A program made the position numbers and the translations under genes. From contig JAGWHC010000002.1 of the NCBI GenBank assembly GCA_028867025.1, forward strand, positions 2,561 to 66,560: DNA of 64,000 nt, given 5' to 3'. The DNA is from Candidatus Micrarchaeota archaeon. GTDB lineage: Archaea; Micrarchaeota; Micrarchaeia; Micrarchaeales; CABMGC01. Positions 53,310 to 62,955 of the stretch are shown here, piece after piece. Within the stretch, counting starts at the first letter, position 1. Every line of letters starts with the position of its first letter. The notes below the pieces were generated by a model. The model was not told where the DNA came from. It made no database searches and saw only the letters and a list, made by a program, of their open reading frames with translations.

Positions 53310-54044
53310 CTACCTTCTCCTGCGCCTTGCGCTCTTTCTTGTAGTGCGCTTGCGTGCTCTCGCAGTGGGTCTCCTGCCTCCCGCGCGGCGCCTTGACTCC
53401 ATAGCCTTGAACTCCGCATAGGTCATCTTCTTCTCCTTCTTGGGCAGCGGCCTGAACGCCTTCGCCTTCTTAGCCGCCTTCTTGCCGGCAGCCCTCTTCG
53501 GAGCCCTCCTTACCCTGATGAAGTAGTATGAGCCCGCAGCGCCCAGGCCCGCGGCGACGGCCACACCTGCTATTATGTAGTCGATGAGCGGAAGCGGCTT
53601 TGCCGGAAGCGCGGTTATAGTGAACAGCTTCACCACCCCTACAGAGAGAGTGGCTCCTCCGTTGAGCGCAGTTGTGTTGCTCGCCTCCTCTACCGCCACC
53701 CCGGCGCGCCACGCTGTCCCAACTGTTGCATTGTAAGGTACTTTCACTGTTATGTTGATGAAGATGTTCTCCCTCGGAAGCATCACGCCTTTTGTAGGGC
53801 TGATTATGATCGTGGGCGACATCACGTTCGCCACTGCGTTGACCTGAGATCTGGTGGCGTAGTATATGGACTGGTTCGCGCAGCTGTTGAACACCTGCAT
53901 CTGCAGCGTCTCGTTGCTTCCGGCGCTTACATTGAAGCTGATCTTGCCAGCCACTTCGCCTATGCACGCTGAGGAAAGTCCTGAGAACAAGAAAAGGGCT
54001 AGCAGGAATACAGACGCTAGATACGAGCCTGCCCTCCTAACCAT
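53310..54044 (-). CDS. Bitopic membrane protein: signal peptide, one Ig-like beta domain, TM helix, ~68-aa poly-basic cytoplasmic tail
   Basis: The signal peptide is YLASVFLLALFLFSGLSSA. The beta-rich ectodomain includes ISFNVSAGSNETLQMQVFN...IIISPTKGVMLPRENIFINITVKV, followed by the TM helix IDYIIAGVAVAAGLGAAGSYYFI. The tail is RVRRAPKRAAGKKAAKKAK...RKRTTRKSARRRRR. Confidence 0.6.
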   Translation of the reverse strand: MVRRAGSYLASVFLLALFLFSGLSSACIGEVAGKISFNVSAGSNETLQMQVFNSCANQSIYYATRSQVNAVANVMSPTIIISPTKGVMLPRENIFINITVKVPYNATVGTAWRAGVAVEEASNTTALNGGATLSVGVVKLFTITALPAKPLPLIDYIIAGVAVAAGLGAAGSYYFIRVRRAPKRAAGKKAAKKAKAFRPLPKKEKKMTYAEFKAMESRRRAGGRRPTARARKRTTRKSARRRRR

Positions 54045-54075
54045 TGAAACCAGCTAAATAGCAATCCAAGGGCAC

Positions 54076-54618
54076 CTAGCAACTGAATGTTACTGTTATG
54101 CCCTGCGTGTACGTGCCCGGGACCTGGCCGGTTGGTACGTTGAGTCCGAAGAAGAGGTTAGCGGAAGTGCCCACCGGGACGAAAATCTGCGTGTCCGCTG
54201 TTATGGAGTTGGTGAGCTGGTTGCCGTTGTTGGCCGCATGCGTCTGCCCGTCCCAAAGCGTGTTGCCTACCAGGAAGTTTCCTACTCCTCCATCCTGCCA
54301 GTTGCCGCTAAGTGCCACACCCGAGTCTGAGTAGAGAAGTATGTTCGTGCTTACCGATCCCGAGTCGGTGACCTTCTCGGCGTTGGACGTGGATGCTGAG
54401 AATCCAGGCTGCACAGAGCCGAAGTTGATCACTGTGTTGGTTATTAATGGGACGCACACTCCTGACACCTGCACCTTCGTGGTTATGCCGTTGAAGGTGT
54501 TCGTTGTCGAGGCGAAGACCAGCGCCGCCGGGCTGAATATAGCGATAAGAGTAACAGCTATCATCGCAGATACTGTCAAGAACGCGAATGCTGATTGTAT
54601 GGTTTTTTTGGCTAGCAT
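54076..54618 (-). CDS. Small secreted protein, Cys-bounded beta module paralogous to the adhesin C-terminus (candidate fibre subunit)
   Basis: It has a Sec-type signal peptide ending VFA/S. The mature part is CVPLITNTVINFGSV...GNTLWDG...NNGNQLTNSITADT...LFFGLNVPTGQVPGTYTQGITVTFSC. It shares 20-nt and 37-nt identical tracts with 55226..55600. Confidence 0.65.
   Translation of the reverse strand: MLAKKTIQSAFAFLTVSAMIAVTLIAIFSPAALVFASTTNTFNGITTKVQVSGVCVPLITNTVINFGSVQPGFSASTSNAEKVTDSGSVSTNILLYSDSGVALSGNWQDGGVGNFLVGNTLWDGQTHAANNGNQLTNSITADTQIFVPVGTSANLFFGLNVPTGQVPGTYTQGITVTFSC
54092..54280. repeat. Dispersed repeat copy A (3' end of small-subunit gene)
   Basis: It is collinear with 55245..55433 at a constant offset of 1153 nt. 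Identical tracts are ACTGTTATGCCCTGCGTGTA (54092-54111 = 55245-55264) and GTTATGGAGTTGGTGAGCTGGTTGCCGTTGTTGGCCG (54200-54236 = 55353-55389). A 23-nt core also occurs at 54748-54770. Confidence 0.8.
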
Positions 54619-55136
54619 GATAGCATCACATTCACTGTGGTCTGGTAGGTCCCTGGCAGTGCGGGCGGAGGAACGTTTGTCCCGAAGTATACCGTGCCTG
54701 TGCCGCCGTTCGCGCTTGCCTGAAGCTGAGTGTCAGCGCCAAGTATTGAGTTGGTGAGCTGGTTGCCGTTTGCCGTGGATCCGTGCGACACGTCGTCCCA
54801 CAGTATGTTGCCTACGAGGAAGGCGTTCGAGAGGTATATGAAGTTGCCTCCGTCGACGAATATGTTGCTCTGGAAGTTGCCGTAGTTGGTTACTGTCTCA
54901 ATGTTTGAGGTGGCCGCGTAGCTGCCTGCAGGCACAGAGCCGAAGTTTATTACAGTGTTGCTTGCCAGCGGTATGCAGGTGTTTGGTATGGCGACGTTGC
55001 CTCCAATTGTGTTGGAGTACGATGCCGCTTGAACGGTAAATGCAGGTCCGAGCAACGAGTAAAGCACCAGTGCGGTGAGCGATGAGACGATAGCAAAGGC
55101 TAGCGCAGACACGACTAGCTCGTTATTTCTCTTCAT
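54612..55136 (-). CDS. Small secreted protein, second paralogue of the Cys-bounded module (candidate fibre subunit)
   Basis: Its signal peptide ends VQA/A. The mature part is CIPLASNTVINFGSV...GNILWDD...NGNQLTNSILGADT...VYFGTNVPPPALPGTYQTTVNVMLSC. It overlaps the next gene by 7 nt. Confidence 0.65.
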   Translation of the reverse strand: MKRNNELVVSALAFAIVSSLTALVLYSLLGPAFTVQAASYSNTIGGNVAIPNTCIPLASNTVINFGSVPAGSYAATSNIETVTNYGNFQSNIFVDGGNFIYLSNAFLVGNILWDDVSHGSTANGNQLTNSILGADTQLQASANGGTGTVYFGTNVPPPALPGTYQTTVNVMLSC

Positions 55137-55176
55137 TTCAGTCGCCGTCTCGGTGTGCTACTATGTGTGTAGTAAG

Positions 55177-55188
55177 ATATTTAAATAT
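55177..55188 (-). promoter_or_regulatory. TATA box candidate for the small-subunit gene pair
   Basis: ATATTTAAATAT lies in the 89-nt gap, about 45 nt upstream of the ATG at 55136. Confidence 0.4.
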
Positions 55189-55225
55189 ACTTCTTTTGTG
55201 GAATGCGCAAACTCCAATCATTCTA

Positions 55226-58200
55226 TCACCCGCACGAGAGCGCGACTGTTATGCCCTGCGTGTATGTTCCCGTAGCCTGCCCGGCAGGAACGTTGAGCCC
55301 GAAGAAGAGATCCGCGGTGTCGCTGGATGCGAGCGAGTTGAACGTGTCTGTGGTTATGGAGTTGGTGAGCTGGTTGCCGTTGTTGGCCGTGCGCTTGCTC
55401 AGGTCCCAGAGCGTGTTTCCAGTGAGGAAGCTGTTGCCGAAGTAGATCCAGTTGCCTGTCGTCGTGCTCGTGGAGTAGATTATTATGTTGCCCGTGGCTG
55501 TGCCCGCGTTCGTGATCGGCATCGCGTTCTGCGTCGCCGTTGAGAAGCCCGCCTGCAGGCTGCCGAAGTTTATGAGCGTGTTCGTTATGGTGGGTATGCA
55601 TGTGGCCGCGCTCGGCTTGTTGCTCATGTTGAATATCGTGGGCGCGCCGCTCTGCCAGCCAATGTCCCACGCATAATCCGTGTATGCGCCCCCGCCGCTC
55701 AGGTCGACCATGCCGTTGAGCGTGTACGTCTGCGTGTTCGGCACGGCGTTGTTGAACTTCTGGTACATTGCGTTGGCGTTGTCGTATGTGGGTATGTTAG
55801 CGTTGGCATACGCGACAGCGGCCCCGTCTGTTGTCCAGCTCTCCCCTGCTGACAGCGAGCCGCTGGAGAAGTTCCTCATGAAGCCGAGCACGTACTGGTT
55901 GGTGGTCTGAAACTCGGCGATCACGTTGCTCGTGGCCACCGAAGTTGCGCCCTTCCAGTACCTGCCCAGGGTGAAGTAGCTGTCGGTGCTTACAGGCCCT
56001 ATGTTGTATCCGGCATTTCCGACAGGATAGAAGTAGCCGCCGCTGGGGCTCGACTTCACGGTCCAGCCTATCGGATTGATTATGTTCTCCGCAAGGTACT
56101 CCTGCGGAGTGCCTGATCCGAGGTTTGAGAGCCAGTGCCTGTAGCCCATGTCGACGCTGTTCCCACCTTCTCCAGTAAGCGTTATACCTACGTTTGCTAT
56201 CCAATTACCGGTCTCGATCCACGTATGGTTCGAGTCCTGGAACGCCCAGGTGACAACTGTGTTGACCACGTTAGCTAGGCTTGCGCTGTTCTGGGCATCA
56301 TCCGATGCCTGGGGGAAGTAGTAGAGCAGCGTGCCTGACGAGGGGTAGTAGGATATAGTGTACGGCTGCACTATCCTGCCGACATCCCATTTTGTTTCCG
56401 TGCCTTCGGCGAAACTGCCATAGATGTTGAACGTCGACGTTGTGAACCTGGCGTCTGCGAAGTTTGGATACAGGTGCCTGTAAGTCCCCGCTCCGGTCCC
56501 TCTGTTGGCTGACTCAACCTGCGTGGTCACGTCCCACTTCTTATCGGTTGACTGCGCGGTGGCGTTGATCACGTAAAGCCCCGGATAGAAATACTGTCCA
56601 GCATTGTTCACGAGCACGCCGTTGTCAAGCAGGTAGAGGCCGTTCCCTGCCGTATCCGTGCCCGGGTTTACCGCTATGTAGTCGCTAGTCACAGCGAAAT
56701 TTGTCAGTGTCACTTCCATGCTCTTCTCCTTTGTGAAGCGGTTGTTTTCGACTACGACATCAGGTATCGTGTTTGCGGCTGGGGTCACGCTGTTCACAGC
56801 GCCGAGGAGGTCTAGGGAGTTGGTGTCGAAGAGGGTGTCGTTGTAGACAACGAACTGTATAGTGCCGGAGGTTGGGCTTACAGATGTCGTAGTGCTAAGT
56901 GCCCCAACGCTGCCCGTGATGACCTTTATTCTTATTCCGCCCAGAGTGTAGATGCCTGAACCTATGCTTGTAGGCGCGTTGGCGTTGCCGCTCTTCCACT
57001 GAATCACGTATCCTGTAGGCACATTGGCGTAGTAGACATTGAGCAGGCCGCCCTGCAGCATATCCATGAGCGTGTTTCCGGTGTCGACTACGTTTCCAGC
57101 CCAAAGCACCGGACCCCACCTGAAGTCGCCCAACGGGGTTAGCAGCCATGGCAGTCGTGTTGCCTCACCGCTGTGCTGTGTGCTTGTCGATACTGTGCTC
57201 GCCTGTCCAATAAGCCCGTTTGTCGGAAAGCCGCCCAGCGCGTTCACTGGTACTATCTGTATGCTGTTTATCCCGTTCACTACGTCGGAGGTGAGGTTCC
57301 AGCCGTGCAGCTGGAACGTGAGCCCGTTGTACGCGTATGTGTCGTAAAAGACGGGATCCTGCATCATGCCGGTTGGCGAGGAAAAGCTCCAGCCAACTAT
57401 CTCGTTAACAGCGTTGGCTCCGCTGACAGTTATCGTGCTGGATATGCTGTTGAACACTGTGCTCGTTCCCTGGTCTGTGCCTATGGCATTGTACGTGTAC
57501 GAAATACCGTTGTTCGGTCCTGCCTGGAAGTAGAGCGTGTTGGAGCCACCTGGCGAGGCAATGACCACGTTGCCCCCGAGGTTCTTGCTGCCGGTCACGT
57601 TGTAGAACTCGATCGTGAACGGGCCCGTGCCGCCGCTGGCCGTTGCTGTGAATGTCTCTGTCTGGCCGGCAAGCACGGTTGAGGGCGTGGCCGTAAACGT
57701 GAGAGAGGGCGGGGGCGGAGCCACAACTGTCATGGTGTTTGTTATAAGCACGTTGTTGACTGTGCTCGCGCTGTCGAGCACGTTGCCGGTGAGCGTGAGC
57801 GTGCCTATGGAGTTGACGTTCTGCGATGAGGTCGGAATCGTGAATGTGCTTATCTCGTTGGTCGCTGCTATCCCGGAGACTATGCTGTTGTATACTATGT
57901 TGACCGGGGTGACGAAGGTATTTGTCACAAGGAAGTTATAGGTGTACGAGCTCTTTCCTCCGGTGACTATCATGTTCAGGGTAACAGGGCTGCCCTGCGC
58001 TGGATTCGGAGAGGAGGTTATCGCAACCGGGAAGAAGCCGTTGTATGCGGTGAATGTGGTAGTAGCAAGGGCATTGTAAGGAGTGGCAGAAGAGTCGACA
58101 ACGTTGGCAGTGAACGTGAGCGTGCCGATCGCGTTCTGCTCATAGGGCAGCGTGAAGCTTACGGAGTTGCTCGTGCTCGAGCTGCTCTGCTGCGAGGCGT

Positions 58201-60736
58201 ATATTACGTTGCTGGTCTGCGTGTTCGTGACGAGGTAGTTGTACGTGTACGGCGTAGTTGTGGCCAAGGCCGATATTGAGACCGAAAGCGCCTCCACCTG
58301 TCCCTGGTCCGCGATCGCGTTGGACACAGTCTGGGAGGTTATGGTTATGCCGTTCTTGATGTAGTTGGCGGATATTATGGCGTCTCCGAGTACTGTTATC
58401 GTATTTGTGGTGCCGGACGTGGGGCTGAGTATGACGTTGGCGGTGTTGGGCGCGTAGACCGTGAAACCGCTGAATGAGTAGCCTGTAGGGGCGACGGGCA
58501 CAAGGGTGTTGGTGCCCAGCACAGTTATGACATTGCCGTTGGCCTGCTGCGTTCCGTTCGTTATTATGTTGCCCGTCGCCGGGTAGTCAAGTAGCAGTAT
58601 GTTGGTCGGGGAATAGACGTACGAGGAGATGGAATACACAGCAGCAGCATCTCCTGAAGTTGAGGTTATCTGGGCCGTATAAGGGCCCGGAGCCAGCGCG
58701 TTGCACGTCTGGATGACCACCTTCGTGCCCGTCTTTGTGCTTCCCTCCGTGGCCGTCTGGAGCGTTGCGCAGCCTGTCTGCGGAGTGCTTATCGTGGCGC
58801 CCGCGTCTCCAGCCACTCCGAAAATCAACAAAACAAGGCTATTCGACAGCTTTTCGGTGTAAGTCAAGCTGGCTGTCGAGCCCAAGGTGTTCACGGTTAT
58901 TATGTTGACATCAGCGACCGCCGTATTAGCAACGTTCGCGCCGTAGCTGACCAGCGACTGCGAGTACGTGGTAGCCGACAAGGTTACGGAGCCAAAGTTG
59001 CCAAGTGTGTTGCGCCCTATGGCTGTGAGGTTGGTGTACCTTTTGGCGCCTTGGCCGGTCGACACCCCGTTTGTTTCGTTGGAGTTGTTGGTCCAGCTGA
59101 TGCTTTTGCTCGCCGTGTTTGGCTGGGTGTGCGACGCGACGCCGAAGAAGTAGCTCATGTAGTTCGTGCCAAGCGTGTTGCTCACCGTGGCCGTCGTGCT
59201 CGTCACGCCGTTGTACGTGAAGCCCACAACGTAGCCGGAGAGCGAGTTTGAATCCGCTGTATAGAAGTAGGAGGTTGCGTTGGAACCCGCGAGGCTTGTC
59301 GGCAGCGCATTCCAGCTGCCCGAGCCGGGGTAGTACTTGAAGAGCCTTATGCTAGAGACGCTTGTATTTTCCTGAGCAATCCACGAGCTTGGCACCGAGA
59401 AGTTGTAGGTGGCGTTATTGACATACAGGTCAATGTTGTTCTTGCCCGTGCCTATGCTGCCGTTTATCTGCATGAACTGGTACACTCCGAAGCGTGGTTG
59501 CGTGAGACTGCTCGGGACGGCAGAGCTGTTGCTTATTGTGATGTTGGCCTGGAGGTTCTGCGCCGTGAAGTTGATCTCTATGTTCCTGAGTACTGATTTG
59601 CTCAGCGTTATTCTGGATCTGGAACCTACCGTTCCCTGGAAACTGTATCTGCCGTTAGTGCCGTTGAACGTTGAGACGTAGTTCTGAATAGCAGGTATGG
59701 TGGTGGTAGAGCTCGTGCTTACAGACGTGGTTGTCGAAGACGTAGAGCTGCTGCCCACAGTCGTGGTGGACGTTGAGGTGATTGTCGAAGTTGTCGAAGT
59801 TGTTGTGGTCTTTGGAGCCGACGCAACACTTATCGTGTTGCTTCCGAACGCGCCGCTGCCTGAGGAGTCGAGCACATTAGCGGTGATTATTAGTGTGCCT
59901 ATATCATTTGACTCCACTGGAAGGGTGAAACTGACCGAATTGCTCGTGAGCGAGTTGCTTACCTGTGCAGCAAAGACCGAGTTGCCTGTGTTGGTATTGC
60001 TCACGGCAAAGCTGTACGTGTATGGCGGCTCCCCACCGGTCACTCTTGCGGTTAGCAGCTCGTACTGGCCCTGTGCCGCTGACTTGTTGGACGCGTAGAT
60101 GCCGATGAAGGCAAACCGCTGTATCGAGTTTGCTGCGGATACTGTCATGGAATTGCTCGCTGAAATGCCTGCCCCCCTCGAATCCGTTATGTTGACCCTG
60201 ACCGTCAGCGTTCCAACGTCGTTCGCCTCTGCAGGCAGCGAAAACCCTGTGCTGCCTTGAGTTTGCGAGCTCGAAACCAGCTTCTGGAAGATTATGTTGC
60301 CCGTGTTTGTGTTGCTCACTATGAAATTGTACGCGTACGGCGCAGTGCCGCCGGTGATCGCCGCAGTAAGCGTTTCGCTCTGCCCCTGCGTTGCTGTCGA
60401 ATTCGAAACAGTCAGATAGTCGAAACCTAGTAGCGCTATGGTGGTCGTGACGCTTGTCGTGCTTGCCGAAGTTGTGGAGGAGGTGGTTGTGCTTGTACTC
60501 AGCGTTGTTGTGGATGATGAGGTGCTGGTTGAACTCAGCGTGTTCGTCTGGTTTCCGGTAGATGCGAAGAGCAGGTGGGAATTTCCGTGGTGCGCCGCGT
60601 ACTGCTGCTGGGCTTGTGACGCTGACGGAGCGCTGCTCGGCACCTGCGGCAGCTGCGGAAGTTGGATCTTGCTTGCGACGAACAGGATCATGAGCAGTAT
60701 TATCAGTGTTAGAAGATTTCCGGTCAGGTTGCCCAT
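55226..60736 (-). CDS. Giant (1836 aa) N-terminally anchored or secreted multi-domain surface protein (adhesin-like)
   Basis: It has an N-terminal hydrophobic helix, two Ser/Thr-only linkers and five Ig-like modules with the GG(T/E/K)xxY(T/A)Y motif. A PGF-pre-PGF-like segment (IRLFKYYPGSGSWNALPTS...YFYTADSNSLSGYVVG) and a ~550-aa unassigned domain follow. The C-terminal 124-aa Cys-bounded module ends GTYTQGITVALSCG. Confidence 0.8.
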   Translation of the reverse strand: MGNLTGNLLTLIILLMILFVASKIQLPQLPQVPSSAPSASQAQQQYAAHHGNSHLLFASTGNQTNTLSSTSTSSSTTTLSTSTTTSSTTSASTTSVTTTIALLGFDYLTVSNSTATQGQSETLTAAITGGTAPYAYNFIVSNTNTGNIIFQKLVSSSQTQGSTGFSLPAEANDVGTLTVRVNITDSRGAGISASNSMTVSAANSIQRFAFIGIYASNKSAAQGQYELLTARVTGGEPPYTYSFAVSNTNTGNSVFAAQVSNSLTSNSVSFTLPVESNDIGTLIITANVLDSSGSGAFGSNTISVASAPKTTTTSTTSTITSTSTTTVGSSSTSSTTTSVSTSSTTTIPAIQNYVSTFNGTNGRYSFQGTVGSRSRITLSKSVLRNIEINFTAQNLQANITISNSSAVPSSLTQPRFGVYQFMQINGSIGTGKNNIDLYVNNATYNFSVPSSWIAQENTSVSSIRLFKYYPGSGSWNALPTSLAGSNATSYFYTADSNSLSGYVVGFTYNGVTSTTATVSNTLGTNYMSYFFGVASHTQPNTASKSISWTNNSNETNGVSTGQGAKRYTNLTAIGRNTLGNFGSVTLSATTYSQSLVSYGANVANTAVADVNIITVNTLGSTASLTYTEKLSNSLVLLIFGVAGDAGATISTPQTGCATLQTATEGSTKTGTKVVIQTCNALAPGPYTAQITSTSGDAAAVYSISSYVYSPTNILLLDYPATGNIITNGTQQANGNVITVLGTNTLVPVAPTGYSFSGFTVYAPNTANVILSPTSGTTNTITVLGDAIISANYIKNGITITSQTVSNAIADQGQVEALSVSISALATTTPYTYNYLVTNTQTSNVIYASQQSSSSTSNSVSFTLPYEQNAIGTLTFTANVVDSSATPYNALATTTFTAYNGFFPVAITSSPNPAQGSPVTLNMIVTGGKSSYTYNFLVTNTFVTPVNIVYNSIVSGIAATNEISTFTIPTSSQNVNSIGTLTLTGNVLDSASTVNNVLITNTMTVVAPPPPSLTFTATPSTVLAGQTETFTATASGGTGPFTIEFYNVTGSKNLGGNVVIASPGGSNTLYFQAGPNNGISYTYNAIGTDQGTSTVFNSISSTITVSGANAVNEIVGWSFSSPTGMMQDPVFYDTYAYNGLTFQLHGWNLTSDVVNGINSIQIVPVNALGGFPTNGLIGQASTVSTSTQHSGEATRLPWLLTPLGDFRWGPVLWAGNVVDTGNTLMDMLQGGLLNVYYANVPTGYVIQWKSGNANAPTSIGSGIYTLGGIRIKVITGSVGALSTTTSVSPTSGTIQFVVYNDTLFDTNSLDLLGAVNSVTPAANTIPDVVVENNRFTKEKSMEVTLTNFAVTSDYIAVNPGTDTAGNGLYLLDNGVLVNNAGQYFYPGLYVINATAQSTDKKWDVTTQVESANRGTGAGTYRHLYPNFADARFTTSTFNIYGSFAEGTETKWDVGRIVQPYTISYYPSSGTLLYYFPQASDDAQNSASLANVVNTVVTWAFQDSNHTWIETGNWIANVGITLTGEGGNSVDMGYRHWLSNLGSGTPQEYLAENIINPIGWTVKSSPSGGYFYPVGNAGYNIGPVSTDSYFTLGRYWKGATSVATSNVIAEFQTTNQYVLGFMRNFSSGSLSAGESWTTDGAAVAYANANIPTYDNANAMYQKFNNAVPNTQTYTLNGMVDLSGGGAYTDYAWDIGWQSGAPTIFNMSNKPSAATCIPTITNTLINFGSLQAGFSTATQNAMPITNAGTATGNIIIYSTSTTTGNWIYFGNSFLTGNTLWDLSKRTANNGNQLTNSITTDTFNSLASSDTADLFFGLNVPAGQATGTYTQGITVALSCG
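55245..55433. repeat. Dispersed repeat copy B (3' end of giant adhesin gene)
   Basis: See copy A. Confidence 0.8.
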
Positions 60737-60827: not shown

Positions 60828-61553
60828 CTAGAAATTGTCCCCGATTATGCGTTCGTAGTGCGACGCCAATTGCGTTATCCCCTGGGAGAAAGGCGCGTCG
60901 TCGTTTTCAAGAAAGAGGGGTATCTGCTTGGCTATGCTCACCGGCACCTCTTGATCCTCTGGAAGCACTGCCAGGGCTTTCTTGTCCAGGCCCTCCTCGA
61001 TCTCCTCGATCGTGATCTCATGCTTCTCCTTCGTCACCCTGTTTACCACAAGGCTGGTTTTGAGGTTGTGCTTGGCGTAAATGTTGGAAAGCCTTATCAC
61101 CGACGTTAGCGATGGCAGGTCCGGGGTTGCGACAAGCAGCGCCTCGTCATGATAGACGAGCACCCTTTCATTGACTATCCCCGGAGACGTGTCGAAAATC
61201 GCGAAATCGTAATCCGTTTCCTTGAGCGGTCCGCCGACCCTGTCGATCTCATCAGGGGTCAGGGTTACTTCGCCTTCGAAGATCGAGCCTGGCAGGACGT
61301 CAAGTCCTGCGGGGAAGTACTTGACCAACGCACCCTCTACGGTCACATGGCCTGCAAAAACGTCCTTTATACCTGTGGTTATCGCTTCTAGCCTGAGATG
61401 CATGCCTACAGAGGGGTTCGACAGGTCAGCGTCTGCAAGAAGCACCTTGTGGCCCCTTGTGCTGAGCGCGGCAGCGAGATTCACCGCTATGACAGTCTTG
61501 CCTACCCCGCCCTTCTGCGAAGACACTCTTATGAAATAGGGCTTCTTTGCCAT
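60828..61553 (-). CDS. ParA/MinD-family ATPase (short form)
   Basis: It has the deviant Walker A SSQKGGVGKT, Switch-like LLADADLSNP, Walker B DFAIFDTSPG and ATPDLPSLTS. Confidence 0.8.
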   Translation of the reverse strand: MAKKPYFIRVSSQKGGVGKTVIAVNLAAALSTRGHKVLLADADLSNPSVGMHLRLEAITTGIKDVFAGHVTVEGALVKYFPAGLDVLPGSIFEGEVTLTPDEIDRVGGPLKETDYDFAIFDTSPGIVNERVLVYHDEALLVATPDLPSLTSVIRLSNIYAKHNLKTSLVVNRVTKEKHEITIEEIEEGLDKKALAVLPEDQEVPVSIAKQIPLFLENDDAPFSQGITQLASHYERIIGDNF

Positions 61554-61560
61554 GCGAACA

Positions 61561-62955
61561 TCAGGTTTCTACTTCTGAGCTTCCCCCAGGCTCTTCGCCA
61601 CCTTCTTCTGGCGAAGGCGACGCCTCGTTTGTGTCTTGTGAAGCTCCCCCGGCTTCCGCATCATCCTCGTCTTCGTCCTTTTCTTTTTCCTCTGCAGGCT
61701 CAGAGATCGGGGACAGGCCCCAGGCTAACGAGTCCGCTCTCGCTTTTGCGATCTTATTCAAGCTCTTATTTCCGTCGTCTGCCGCTTCGTTTTTAGGCCT
61801 TTTTACAGCGGCACCCTTGCTGCGGTTATTCTTCTGACTCTTCCTCGCCGCTGCTTTCTTCAGCTTCGATCTCTTCTTTGCCTTGTTCTTGCCTTTCGTC
61901 TTCAGTTCCTTAGCGCTCTTCCTCAGTTCCTTGGCCTGCTCCTTCCTCAATTCCACCTGCTTCCTGGCCTCGATCTTCCTCTTCATCTCTGCCTTGCGCG
62001 CCAGCTCCTCGGCCTTCGCCTTGGCCTCCATCTTCTTCCTCATGGACTCTATCTCGCGCTTCGCCTTCGACTCCGCCTCTGCGCGCTCCTTCTCAATCTT
62101 CTCGGCAAGCAGCGCGCGCTGCCTCTTCTCCTCCTTCTTCAACGCCTCCGCCGCGATCTTGCTTATCTTCTCGCTCTCCTTCCTCTCACGCTCGCCCGAG
62201 AGTCTCTTCCAGTTTGCGAATTGTGGCCCGTGCTGCGACGCTCCGCCTGCTTTCCCCGCGCATGCGTTCGCGAGTTTCTTCATCGCCACTGTGAATGGCG
62301 AGGATTCGCCGCTCAAGTATGCTGGGGTGTGCGCGGCAAGGCTTTCGCTGACAGTTGTGTCCTCAGGAAACGCCACCGTCACCTTTCCTCCCCACGCGTC
62401 CTCTATCTCGCTTATTCTCAGTTCATAGCTCCTGCCCGTAACCCTGTTGAGCGTCAATGTATACCTCTCCTTTATCCCCTTGAGTTCCTCTCCCAGCCTG
62501 AGCGCGCTCGTGAGCGCAGGCAGGTCCGGCGTGGCCACTATCACCGCCTCGTCGAACGGCATCATGTCCTCCTCCTGCTGCAGTCCAGGCGCTGTGTCGA
62601 CTACAACGAAATCGTAGCTGCACCTCTCAAGCTCCTCAACCAGCCTCTTGACGTGCGTGTTTGTCAGCTGGAACGGCTTCGTGCTGAGCATGCCAAGCAC
62701 GCAGTGCATCCCCGTTGGGGCGTGCACAGTCACCACGTTTGCCAGGCTGGCGCCGTCCACCACGAGATTCTCAAAACCCACCTTCGCGTCCTCCATGCCA
62801 AGGTGCAACCCAACCGCGGGATTGTCGGTGTCAGCGTCGACCATCAGCACGCGCTTGTTCGTCAGCTTCAGCGCGACGGCGAGGTTCACAGCTACTGTTG
62901 TCTTGCCTACCCCGCCCTTCTGGCTCAGAACGCCTATTATATACGGCCTCAGCAA
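61561..62955 (-). CDS. ParA/MinD-family ATPase with ~140-aa Lys/Glu-rich coiled-coil and acidic C-terminal tail
   Basis: The N-terminal ~235 aa carry LSQKGGVGKT, MVDADTDNP, DFVVVDTAPG and ATPDLPALTS. A KE/KR-rich segment (KKEEKRQRALLAEKIEKERAEAESKAKREIESMRKKMEAKAKAEE...) follows, then EPAEEKEKDEDEDDAEAGG...EEGGEEPGGSSEVET. Confidence 0.8.
   Translation of the reverse strand: MLRPYIIGVLSQKGGVGKTTVAVNLAVALKLTNKRVLMVDADTDNPAVGLHLGMEDAKVGFENLVVDGASLANVVTVHAPTGMHCVLGMLSTKPFQLTNTHVKRLVEELERCSYDFVVVDTAPGLQQEEDMMPFDEAVIVATPDLPALTSALRLGEELKGIKERYTLTLNRVTGRSYELRISEIEDAWGGKVTVAFPEDTTVSESLAAHTPAYLSGESSPFTVAMKKLANACAGKAGGASQHGPQFANWKRLSGERERKESEKISKIAAEALKKEEKRQRALLAEKIEKERAEAESKAKREIESMRKKMEAKAKAEELARKAEMKRKIEARKQVELRKEQAKELRKSAKELKTKGKNKAKKRSKLKKAAARKSQKNNRSKGAAVKRPKNEAADDGNKSLNKIAKARADSLAWGLSPISEPAEEKEKDEDEDDAEAGGASQDTNEASPSPEEGGEEPGGSSEVET

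Follow-up and report, generated by a model that had tools for sequence, protein, structure and literature searches.

The locus described here lies in a 64,000-nucleotide stretch (the window, from whose first letter all positions below are counted) of contig JAGWHC010000002.1 of a Candidatus Micrarchaeota archaeon, a small symbiont whose DNA was obtained from mine-drainage metagenomes. The locus comprises, on the minus strand, a giant surface protein gene (G), two genes for small secreted subunits (S1 and S2) and a downstream gene for a conserved protein (Table 1). A reading made earlier from the letters alone (the sequence-only reading) had pointed to one Cys-bounded module of about 124 amino acids (aa) at the C-terminus of the giant and in both small secreted proteins, and this is borne out: the three copies are collinear, share 49-57% amino-acid identity and hold 47 invariant columns. 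An invariant first Cys opens each copy and a Cys at the last or second-to-last residue of the chain closes it, the module of G ending one residue ahead of the stop, and the nearest relative of the S2 copy among the three is that of G. The S2 and S1 genes overlap by 7 nucleotides (nt; 54612-54618), as they do in close relatives, and the genome carrying the window (0.81 Mb, 96% complete) contains exactly three modules.

Table 1. Features of the locus in window coordinates (ORF, open reading frame; Ig, immunoglobulin)
Feature	Position	Strand	Description
Giant surface protein gene G	55226-60736	minus	1836 aa; from ORF and translation
Layout of G, N- to C-terminus			hydrophobic segment, Ser/Thr linkers, Ig-like repeats, large unassigned region, module
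Module copy of G	55232-55600	minus	Cys1713-Cys1835 (aa 1713-1835)
S1, small secreted subunit	54612-55136	minus	174 aa
Module copy of S1	54615-54977	minus	Cys54-Cys174
Mature N-terminal segment of S1	54978-55025	minus	aa 38-53; candidate donor strand; alternating hydrophobic residues
S2, small secreted subunit	54076-54618	minus	180 aa
Module copy of S2	54079-54456	minus	Cys55-Cys180
Mature N-terminal segment of S2	54457-54510	minus	aa 37-54; candidate donor strand
Downstream conserved protein	53310-54044	minus	244 aa; candidate membrane-anchored chaperone or anchor
37-nt tract in S2	54200-54236		identical to 55353-55389 in G; encodes A-N-N-G-N-Q-L-T-N-S-I
37-nt tract in G	55353-55389		partner of 54200-54236
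20-nt tract in S2	54092-54111		identical to 55245-55264 in G; encodes Y-T-Q-G-I-T-V, last strand
20-nt tract in G	55245-55264		partner of 54092-54111
23-nt core of the tract, in S1	54748-54770		also at 54206 and 55359

The module family has no Pfam model: scans of G, S1 and S2 gave no match at E<=1, and among 55 family members no Pfam family reached threshold, the sub-threshold echoes being SCPU (touched by only 2 members, at E 0.024), DUF1120 and DUF4402. An exhaustive profile search with the module returned 312 clusters at E<1e-3, and the 157 representatives included 65 small singles made of a signal peptide and one module, 26 tandem doubles and 58 large proteins of 0.35-3.4 thousand amino acids (kaa). 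In 57 of these 58 large proteins the module ends at most 5 aa from the C-terminus, and the chain nearly always finishes with ...S-C. Close homologues are labelled Micrarchaeota; the family is present in 64 of 201 sampled genomes of the phylum and in roughly half of those sampled from the window's own order, mostly as two or three modules per genome in the order G, M1, M2. Both Cys residues are kept in 160 of 161 complete modules and are lost together in the first module of at least five tandem doubles, which fits a disulfide, and the bounding pair therefore probably forms one.

Variants of this layout were met across the lineages. In many genomes of the order (loci L014-L021, L031 and L032) S1 and S2 are fused into a tandem double of about 330 aa that has no second signal peptide. 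A more distant lineage (L008:2414-5475, on the contig of P0011) has four small genes in a row, each with one module (181-189 aa), and after them the membrane-anchored protein; the fetched stretch contained no large gene bearing the module, and this locus may be adhesin-less or differently organised. The giants of L001 (5166-9164), L004 (5189-9187) and L005 (4844-9187) have the module directly after the Ig-like repeats, at aa 856-993 of 1332, with an extra C-terminal domain trailing it, and in L005 the central segment is replaced (1447 vs 1332 aa); the giant gene is thus shuffled domain by domain between lineages.

An AlphaFold2 model of the S2 module, built from a 55-sequence alignment, is all-beta with seven strands and has a predicted local distance difference test (pLDDT) score of 89.3; it superseded a model from 11 sequences (pLDDT 67; weak Foldseek matches). 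The best solved match in Foldseek was the pilin CsuA/B (7zl4; E 1.6e-4, template modelling (TM) score 0.54), followed by CupE (8cio), the TasA fibre, PapA, FimA, FimG, the pilin domains of PapG and FimH, and Caf1, so that the predicted structure has an Ig-like pilin fold resembling the solved chaperone-usher pilins at a sequence identity of 16-18%. Matches to the TasA-type fold were weaker than those to chaperone-usher pilins (8aur, TM score 0.45; 7ueg, TM score 0.40). Among clusters of predicted structures in AFDB, the nearest named ones were the WxL domain (E 7e-5 to 5e-4), Spore coat protein U/FanG, DUF4402 and a SipW-signal peptide protein, and WxL was also a neighbour of the module in a protein language model, with a score of 0.83. 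The PDB sequence-profile search with the module was empty. On the model, the module can securely be classed as a seven-strand Ig-like beta-sandwich; an acceptor groove within it is a candidate feature, and the fold class is the firmer of the two. A complex prediction for the G module with S1 and S2 scored 0.02, which is neither support nor counter-evidence and was used neither way.

In S1 and S2 a hydrophobic leader is followed by a consistent small-x-small cleavage-type site (VFA/S and VQA/A, with equivalents in homologues), and the segment between this site and the first Cys distinguishes small from large members of the family. The 12 residues ahead of the first Cys follow the consensus N.V.A.V.VP.TC in 60 small subunits and in 23 second modules of tandem doubles, and positions -10, -6 and -4 are hydrophobic with a frequency of 0.8-0.9 in the 60 small members, whereas 58 large proteins have no consensus and flat hydrophobicity at the same positions. 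Ahead of the module of G, too, the conserved amphipathic strand of the small subunits is missing. In the monomer model of S2 the 18 residues before the first Cys are unpaired, with no DSSP strand and a pLDDT of 67-79. A strand kept by all small proteins and dispensable in the large ones is what one would expect of subunits that donate it and of tip adhesins that act as acceptors only.

The protein encoded downstream of S2 could supply a chaperone or an anchor. According to the orthologue alignment it has a signal- or lipobox-like N-terminus, one beta-rich domain, a transmembrane helix near its C-terminus and a poly-basic tail, and an invariant A-C-I-G-E-V-A-G-K starts the mature part right after a lipobox-like L-S-S-A-C, which suggests that lipid modification in addition to a transmembrane anchor is possible. 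A second invariant Cys follows 28 residues on, and the tail consists of four or five Arg in most aligned orthologues. The nearest clusters to its ESM Atlas model were DUF916/WxLIP_PGBD, at TM scores of 0.42-0.47, and the PF06030 model touched 2 of 7 orthologues below threshold, at E 0.013; the window's own protein had no Pfam match, and a PDB sequence-profile search with it was empty. A kinship between this family and the module family was considered and dropped, the two being not detectably related (hhalign probability 2%). Gene order is kept across lineages, as a bitopic protein, one or two ParA/MinD ATPases, G, S1, S2 and a protein of 190-245 aa. Two adjacent ParA/MinD-type ATPases lie directly upstream of the giant gene in the window (60828-62955, minus strand), and one or two such genes occupy this position in all related loci fetched.

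Given this fold, this family architecture and this locus context, we propose, with a probability of about one half, that the locus encodes a donor-strand fibre of Micrarchaeota, with S1 and S2 as pilin-like subunits and G as a modular tip adhesin. S1 and S2 would be exported and their signal peptides cleaved, which would expose the conserved amphipathic N-terminal strand, and the subunits might then be held by the membrane-anchored downstream protein. They would be joined head-to-tail by donor-strand complementation, each N-terminal strand being given to the module of the neighbouring subunit. The module of G, an acceptor body with no donor strand of its own, would on this account be built in at one end of the fibre; G would thus enter as the acceptor-only subunit at the end made first, and there display a long, glycosylatable payload of Ser/Thr and Ig repeats. 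The ParA/MinD pair and the bitopic proteins could position or anchor the structure. The earlier suggestion that the large protein is incorporated into, or caps, a polymer of the small ones thereby gains indirect support from fold, architecture and locus context.

Several observations weigh against such a fibre. The filament is a prediction from genes and modelled folds, and no Pfam pilin, WxL, SCPU or DUF916 model reached threshold on the window's proteins or on the genome. The putative donor segment is simply a linker in the tandem doubles, where it may just as well form the first strand of each domain itself. Moreover, in the closest relatives (L001, L004 and L005) the module of the giant is internal and is followed by 339 aa.

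The main alternative is that the module is a closed, self-sufficient Ig-like domain serving a non-filamentous association, for instance as a C-terminal attachment or sorting domain that docks large proteins onto a platform of small subunits, onto an S-layer or onto the downstream membrane protein, with a logic comparable to that of the C-terminal domain of the type IX secretion system or of an S-layer anchoring domain. The structural ranking by VIA-align is in keeping with this, since it puts complete PapD-like/ASH/MSP and GH123 N-terminal sandwiches first, at a root-mean-square deviation of 2.1-2.5 A over the Cys-bounded body. So are the location of the module at the extreme C-terminus of large proteins and the resemblance of the tandem doubles to ordinary tandem Ig domains. 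However, a closed domain gives no account of an amphipathic strand that is conserved in the small subunits and absent from the large ones, nor of why this strand is unpaired in the monomer model. The named Foldseek neighbours in two libraries, moreover, belong mostly to donor-strand pilin classes, and stand-alone module genes adjoin every large one. We consider the closed-domain explanation rather unlikely.

The module copies also contain islands of identical DNA, and the tracts of 20, 37 and 23 nt sit exactly where the sequence-only reading had put them, including the fixed 1153-nt offset at which 54092-54280 and 55245-55433 share 138 of 189 bases. The 23-nt core has three occurrences only on either strand of the window. 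The paralogues themselves are old, with nonsynonymous and synonymous divergences (dN and dS) of 0.43 and 1.05 between G and S2, and dS of 1.2-1.7 in the pairs with S1. A run of 37 nt was reached in 0 of 20000 simulations under a null that combined the protein alignment with genome codon usage and treated codons as independent; since the run exceeds the simulated nulls, the island is no trivial by-product.

For such islands the sequence-only reading had offered either ongoing gene conversion or strong constraint on one segment, and had asked that the same three copies be compared in related genomes. For this genome the second is favoured by a codon alignment that covers the three modules (G, S1, S2) from the window (W) and from the related loci L001, L004/L006, L005, L007 and L010. 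Perfect runs between paralogues of different genomes are nearly as long as the 37 nt within W, namely 35 nt between W_G and L001_S2 and 31 nt between L004_G and W_S2. The 30-nt identity profile of W_G against W_S2 correlates with cross-genome paralogue profiles at r = 0.91-0.93, its mean identity (0.62) equals theirs (0.59-0.63), and all the profiles peak over the same segment (1.00 in W vs 0.97, 0.93 and 0.93), which is also the most conserved one between orthologues. Informative quartet sites for W and L001 number 61 for orthology, 7 for concerted evolution and 9 for the control, and at conserved residues the codon identity is 0.55 both in same-genome and in different-genome pairs. The tract motif consists largely of Asn, Gln, Gly and Ile, for which codon usage is strongly skewed (AAC 81%, CAG 90%). 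As these alignments read, G and S2 were already identical at the island before the W and L001 lineages split, and no exchange is detectable in the window since the split from its sister lineage. The island reflects strong constraint on the most conserved motifs of the clade (NGNQLTNSI and YTQGITV), possibly atop an old homogenisation; for the tract, ancient conversion and synonymous constraint may both be compatible with the pattern and are not separable.

That gene conversion between G and S2 (and S1) is still holding these short tracts identical amid divergence in this genome appears improbable. The 37-nt run above the simulations conditioned on protein sequence and codon usage speaks for it, as does the sharing of codons, the same codon being used at 46-48 of 71-73 identical residues where about 34-36 are expected. 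A TCC Ser codon inside the tract is common to W_G and W_S2 and varies in relatives, and conversion clearly occurs in those relatives. Nevertheless, the island of 35 and 31 nt recurs between paralogues of different genomes, the identity profiles are superimposable within and across genomes with quartets of 61/7/9, there is no within-genome excess of codon identity, and the W paralogues differ by a dS of about 1; a single synonymous site, the shared Ser codon, accounts for the additional length of the run within W. One result also counts against constraint as the full account: the run still stands above a null in which residual ancestry was fitted uniformly (p = 0.003), so that constraint and codon bias may not explain everything. 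The GENECONV-type test that had been proposed did not help here. W_G and W_S2 reached the floor p-value, but cross-genome pairs such as W_G and L001_S2 were flagged equally, which means that the permutation of polymorphic sites detects rate heterogeneity along the module and not exchange; it was rejected as uninformative because the sites are not exchangeable.

Among relatives, by contrast with the window's lineage, conversion is clear. In a five-lineage tree the S1 orthologues form a clean clade (100/100) and G and S2 are intermixed, with L007_G and L007_S2 pairing by genome, as do L010_G and L010_S2. The L007 pair is a mosaic with a perfect 71-nt tract spanning lineage-specific residues, and the L010 pair has a 41-nt perfect tract within about 140 nt at about 95% identity; the flanks of these tracts are 55-75% identical, the overall dS is 0.8-0.9, and the quartets give 7 sites for orthology, 53 for concerted evolution and 4 for the control. 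When 20 more loci of the same order were added, the resulting 62-module tree required 15 changes of the label G, which is not monophyletic, and contained six well-supported same-genome pairs of G with a small module (L007, L010, L018, L023, L024 and L028) as well as two well-supported pairs of M1 with M2. Perfect runs of at least 30 nt occur in 7 of 46 same-genome paralogue pairs vs 3 of 1105 pairs differing in both genome and type, all three of the latter coming from sister genomes. Trees and tracts alike indicate that, family-wide, the module of the giant and the adjacent small gene evolve in concert via conversion-like replacement, and the process suspected by the sequence-only reading (gene conversion or repeated replacement) clearly exists in relatives. 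As a lesson in method, islands of identity between paralogues and 'significant' GENECONV-type tests can stem from motif-level constraint, and paralogue controls across genomes cleanly separate this from true conversion as seen in the sister lineages.

Two strains with relatives of window 53900-55100, L001 (9490-10700) and L004 (9515-10790), are 98.5-99.7% identical over 20 kb and carry wholly different alleles of S1, S2 and the 5' part of the downstream gene. Their dS is 1.31 for S1 and 2.23 for S2, and their G modules are identical (dS 0.02), the pattern of a swapped, hypervariable subunit cassette. A recombination breakpoint at the conserved tract was rejected for this pair, divergence in the alignment starting about 44 nt into S1.

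Another explanation for the small proteins, which we regard as very improbable, would make S1 and S2 resemble type IV pilins, with the N-terminal hydrophobic helix retained as the filament core and the module as a globular head. The N-terminal hydrophobic segments are indeed long (about 25 residues) and partly conserved in close relatives, and archaeal type IV pilins also have Ig-like heads. Against this, no class III cleavage motif precedes the hydrophobic segment and a small-x-small site follows it, the module of the giant and the second modules of doubles lack the hydrophobic helix, and the locus has no PilB/PilC-type genes, only ParA/MinD. The idea that the giant is itself an S-layer protein was also dropped: the described S-layer protein of Micrarchaeum has PF05123 (10.1101/2021.04.28.441871), and the giant has no PF05123 match.

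The reality of the tracts was checked in Logan unitigs, which are read-derived de Bruijn sequences, from three independent mine-drainage metagenome runs, the sequence-only reading having named a collapsed or chimeric repeat as the way in which they might be false. The 37-mer at 55353-55389 forms its own unitig node with a raised depth of 40.7 vs about 20, 11.8 vs about 5.5 and 6 vs about 4.8, that is, about twice the flanks in two of three samples, and both sets of flanks have single depth and zero mismatches in the three samples, as expected if each genome carries two copies of the sequence. By quartet sites and identity profiles, the two halves of every copy cluster with their own orthologues, and the halves are therefore not swapped; the three-copy layout also recurs in independent assemblies from other samples. 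An assembly artefact, for which one could cite the breaking of de Bruijn unitigs at the tract, is thus excluded for practical purposes by the raised node with its clean flanks, by reads far longer than the tract, by the clustering of the halves with orthologues and by the repeated layout. Programmed deletion between the two 37-nt direct repeats was considered and set aside, as no joints were found in four runs, with the proviso that rare variants are lost from contigs. A soil metagenome of a different study (run X5) yielded zero-mismatch pieces at 53903-54163, 54248-54763 and 55073-55358 without the intervening parts, both tract regions among them, which points to low coverage or a mosaic relative.

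The Micrarchaeota, very small archaea most of which have not been cultured, depend on attachment to a host cell. In a cultivated relative, electron microscopy has shown fibrous connections, to which no genes have been assigned (PMC8784108). The family described here provides concrete candidates for such attachment: pilin-like subunits, a protein that may act as a membrane chaperone, and a plug-in module by which adhesins (0.5 to more than 3 kaa long, with payloads that vary) can be recognised. A fuller picture, possible and still rather doubtful, is that the locus is an archaeal (DPANN) chaperone-assisted donor-strand pilus with a single-domain membrane-anchored chaperone, two pilins and giant tip adhesins whose repertoire is open-ended and which are inserted via the invariant C-terminal module, and that the fibre is the host-attachment organelle of Micrarchaeota; conversion-like exchange between adhesin module and pilin would then preserve the fit of acceptor to donor even as strains swap the exposed pilin cassette. 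The chaperone-assisted donor-strand pathway has so far comprised the Gram-negative chaperone-usher systems and, since 2026, the WxL system of Bacillota and the Pam pili of the Candidate Phyla Radiation (CPR). If the donor strand is real, chaperone-guided strand exchange would extend to both prokaryotic domains and to each of the three envelope types, and this would contradict the current view of archaeal strand-donation filaments as chaperone-free.

A literature search found no such system described for DPANN or Micrarchaeota, and the comparison with known systems is accordingly one of likeness. Against the whole genome, the SCPU model (PF05229) found nothing at E<=10, and the WxL (PF13731) and WxLIP_PGBD/DUF916 (PF06030) models had no match; for similarity to TasA (Peptidase_M73), AbpA and Saci_0406 there was no Pfam match and the PDB profile search was empty. 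As sequence membership in SCPU, WxL, WxLIP or TasA was not found, we regard the locus as working like these systems and not as a member of any of them.

The archaeal donor-strand filaments, namely the threads of Sulfolobus (PMC9715654), the bundling pili of Pyrobaculum (PMC9245690), the cannulae of Pyrodictium and the Tat-fimbriae of haloarchaea, are alike in being archaeal, in secretion of the Sec/signal peptidase I type and in passing an N-terminal strand to the next subunit, and a paralogous gene for a putative cap protein lies beside that of the major subunit (Saci_0405). They are a poorer match than the WxL, Pam and chaperone-usher systems and are described as chaperone-free. The evolution of the module copies resembles the concerted evolution of paralogous pilins and surface antigens, with mosaic identical tracts in adjacent paralogues, same-genome clustering on trees and a hypervariable subunit cassette between near-identical strains (here L001 and L004), but there are here no silent cassette arrays and no sign of programmed variation.

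Chaperone-usher pili of the archaic Csu/CupE type provide the best solved-structure matches to the module, and their tip adhesins (FimH, PapG and CsuE) combine an N-terminal binding part with a C-terminal pilin domain that has no donor strand, as proposed for G; the archaeal locus differs in having no outer membrane, usher or two-domain periplasmic chaperone. The Pam pili of CPR bacteria, with chaperones anchored by a transmembrane segment and a tip pilin without a donor strand (PMC13278184), come from episymbionts with reduced genomes, and have Ig-like pilins joined by strand donation, chaperones with a C-terminal transmembrane helix, no trans-envelope machine and a single-domain tip pilin; the membrane anchor of the downstream protein here parallels that of their chaperones. 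They differ in their two-domain pilins, in being reported as exclusive to CPR and in having no giant adhesin with a C-terminal pilin module, and the likeness is one of description, not of sequence.

The WxL (Elr) pilus of Enterococcus and Lactobacillales, with a membrane-anchored DUF916 chaperone and an N-terminal donor strand, has been reported as confined to Bacillota (10.64898/2026.10.17.759780). Here the host, an archaeon, has neither peptidoglycan nor sortase nor an LPxTG anchor, the candidate chaperone consists of a single domain (244 aa) instead of DUF916 plus DUF3324, and a bitopic protein and two ParA/MinD ATPases are present in addition. Nevertheless, both loci encode small secreted subunits with an Ig-like body and an N-terminal amphipathic strand, and both encode an Ig-like protein with a C-terminal transmembrane anchor, a chaperone there and a candidate chaperone with DUF916/WxLIP fold neighbours here. 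In both, furthermore, the module shared with the small subunits lies nearest the C-terminus of the large adhesins, below a variable payload, in 2867 of 2871 adhesins of the WxL system (10.64898/2026.10.17.759780) and in 57 of 58 large proteins here, and the place proposed for G at the fibre end could be compared with that of the WxL pilus adhesin ElrA.

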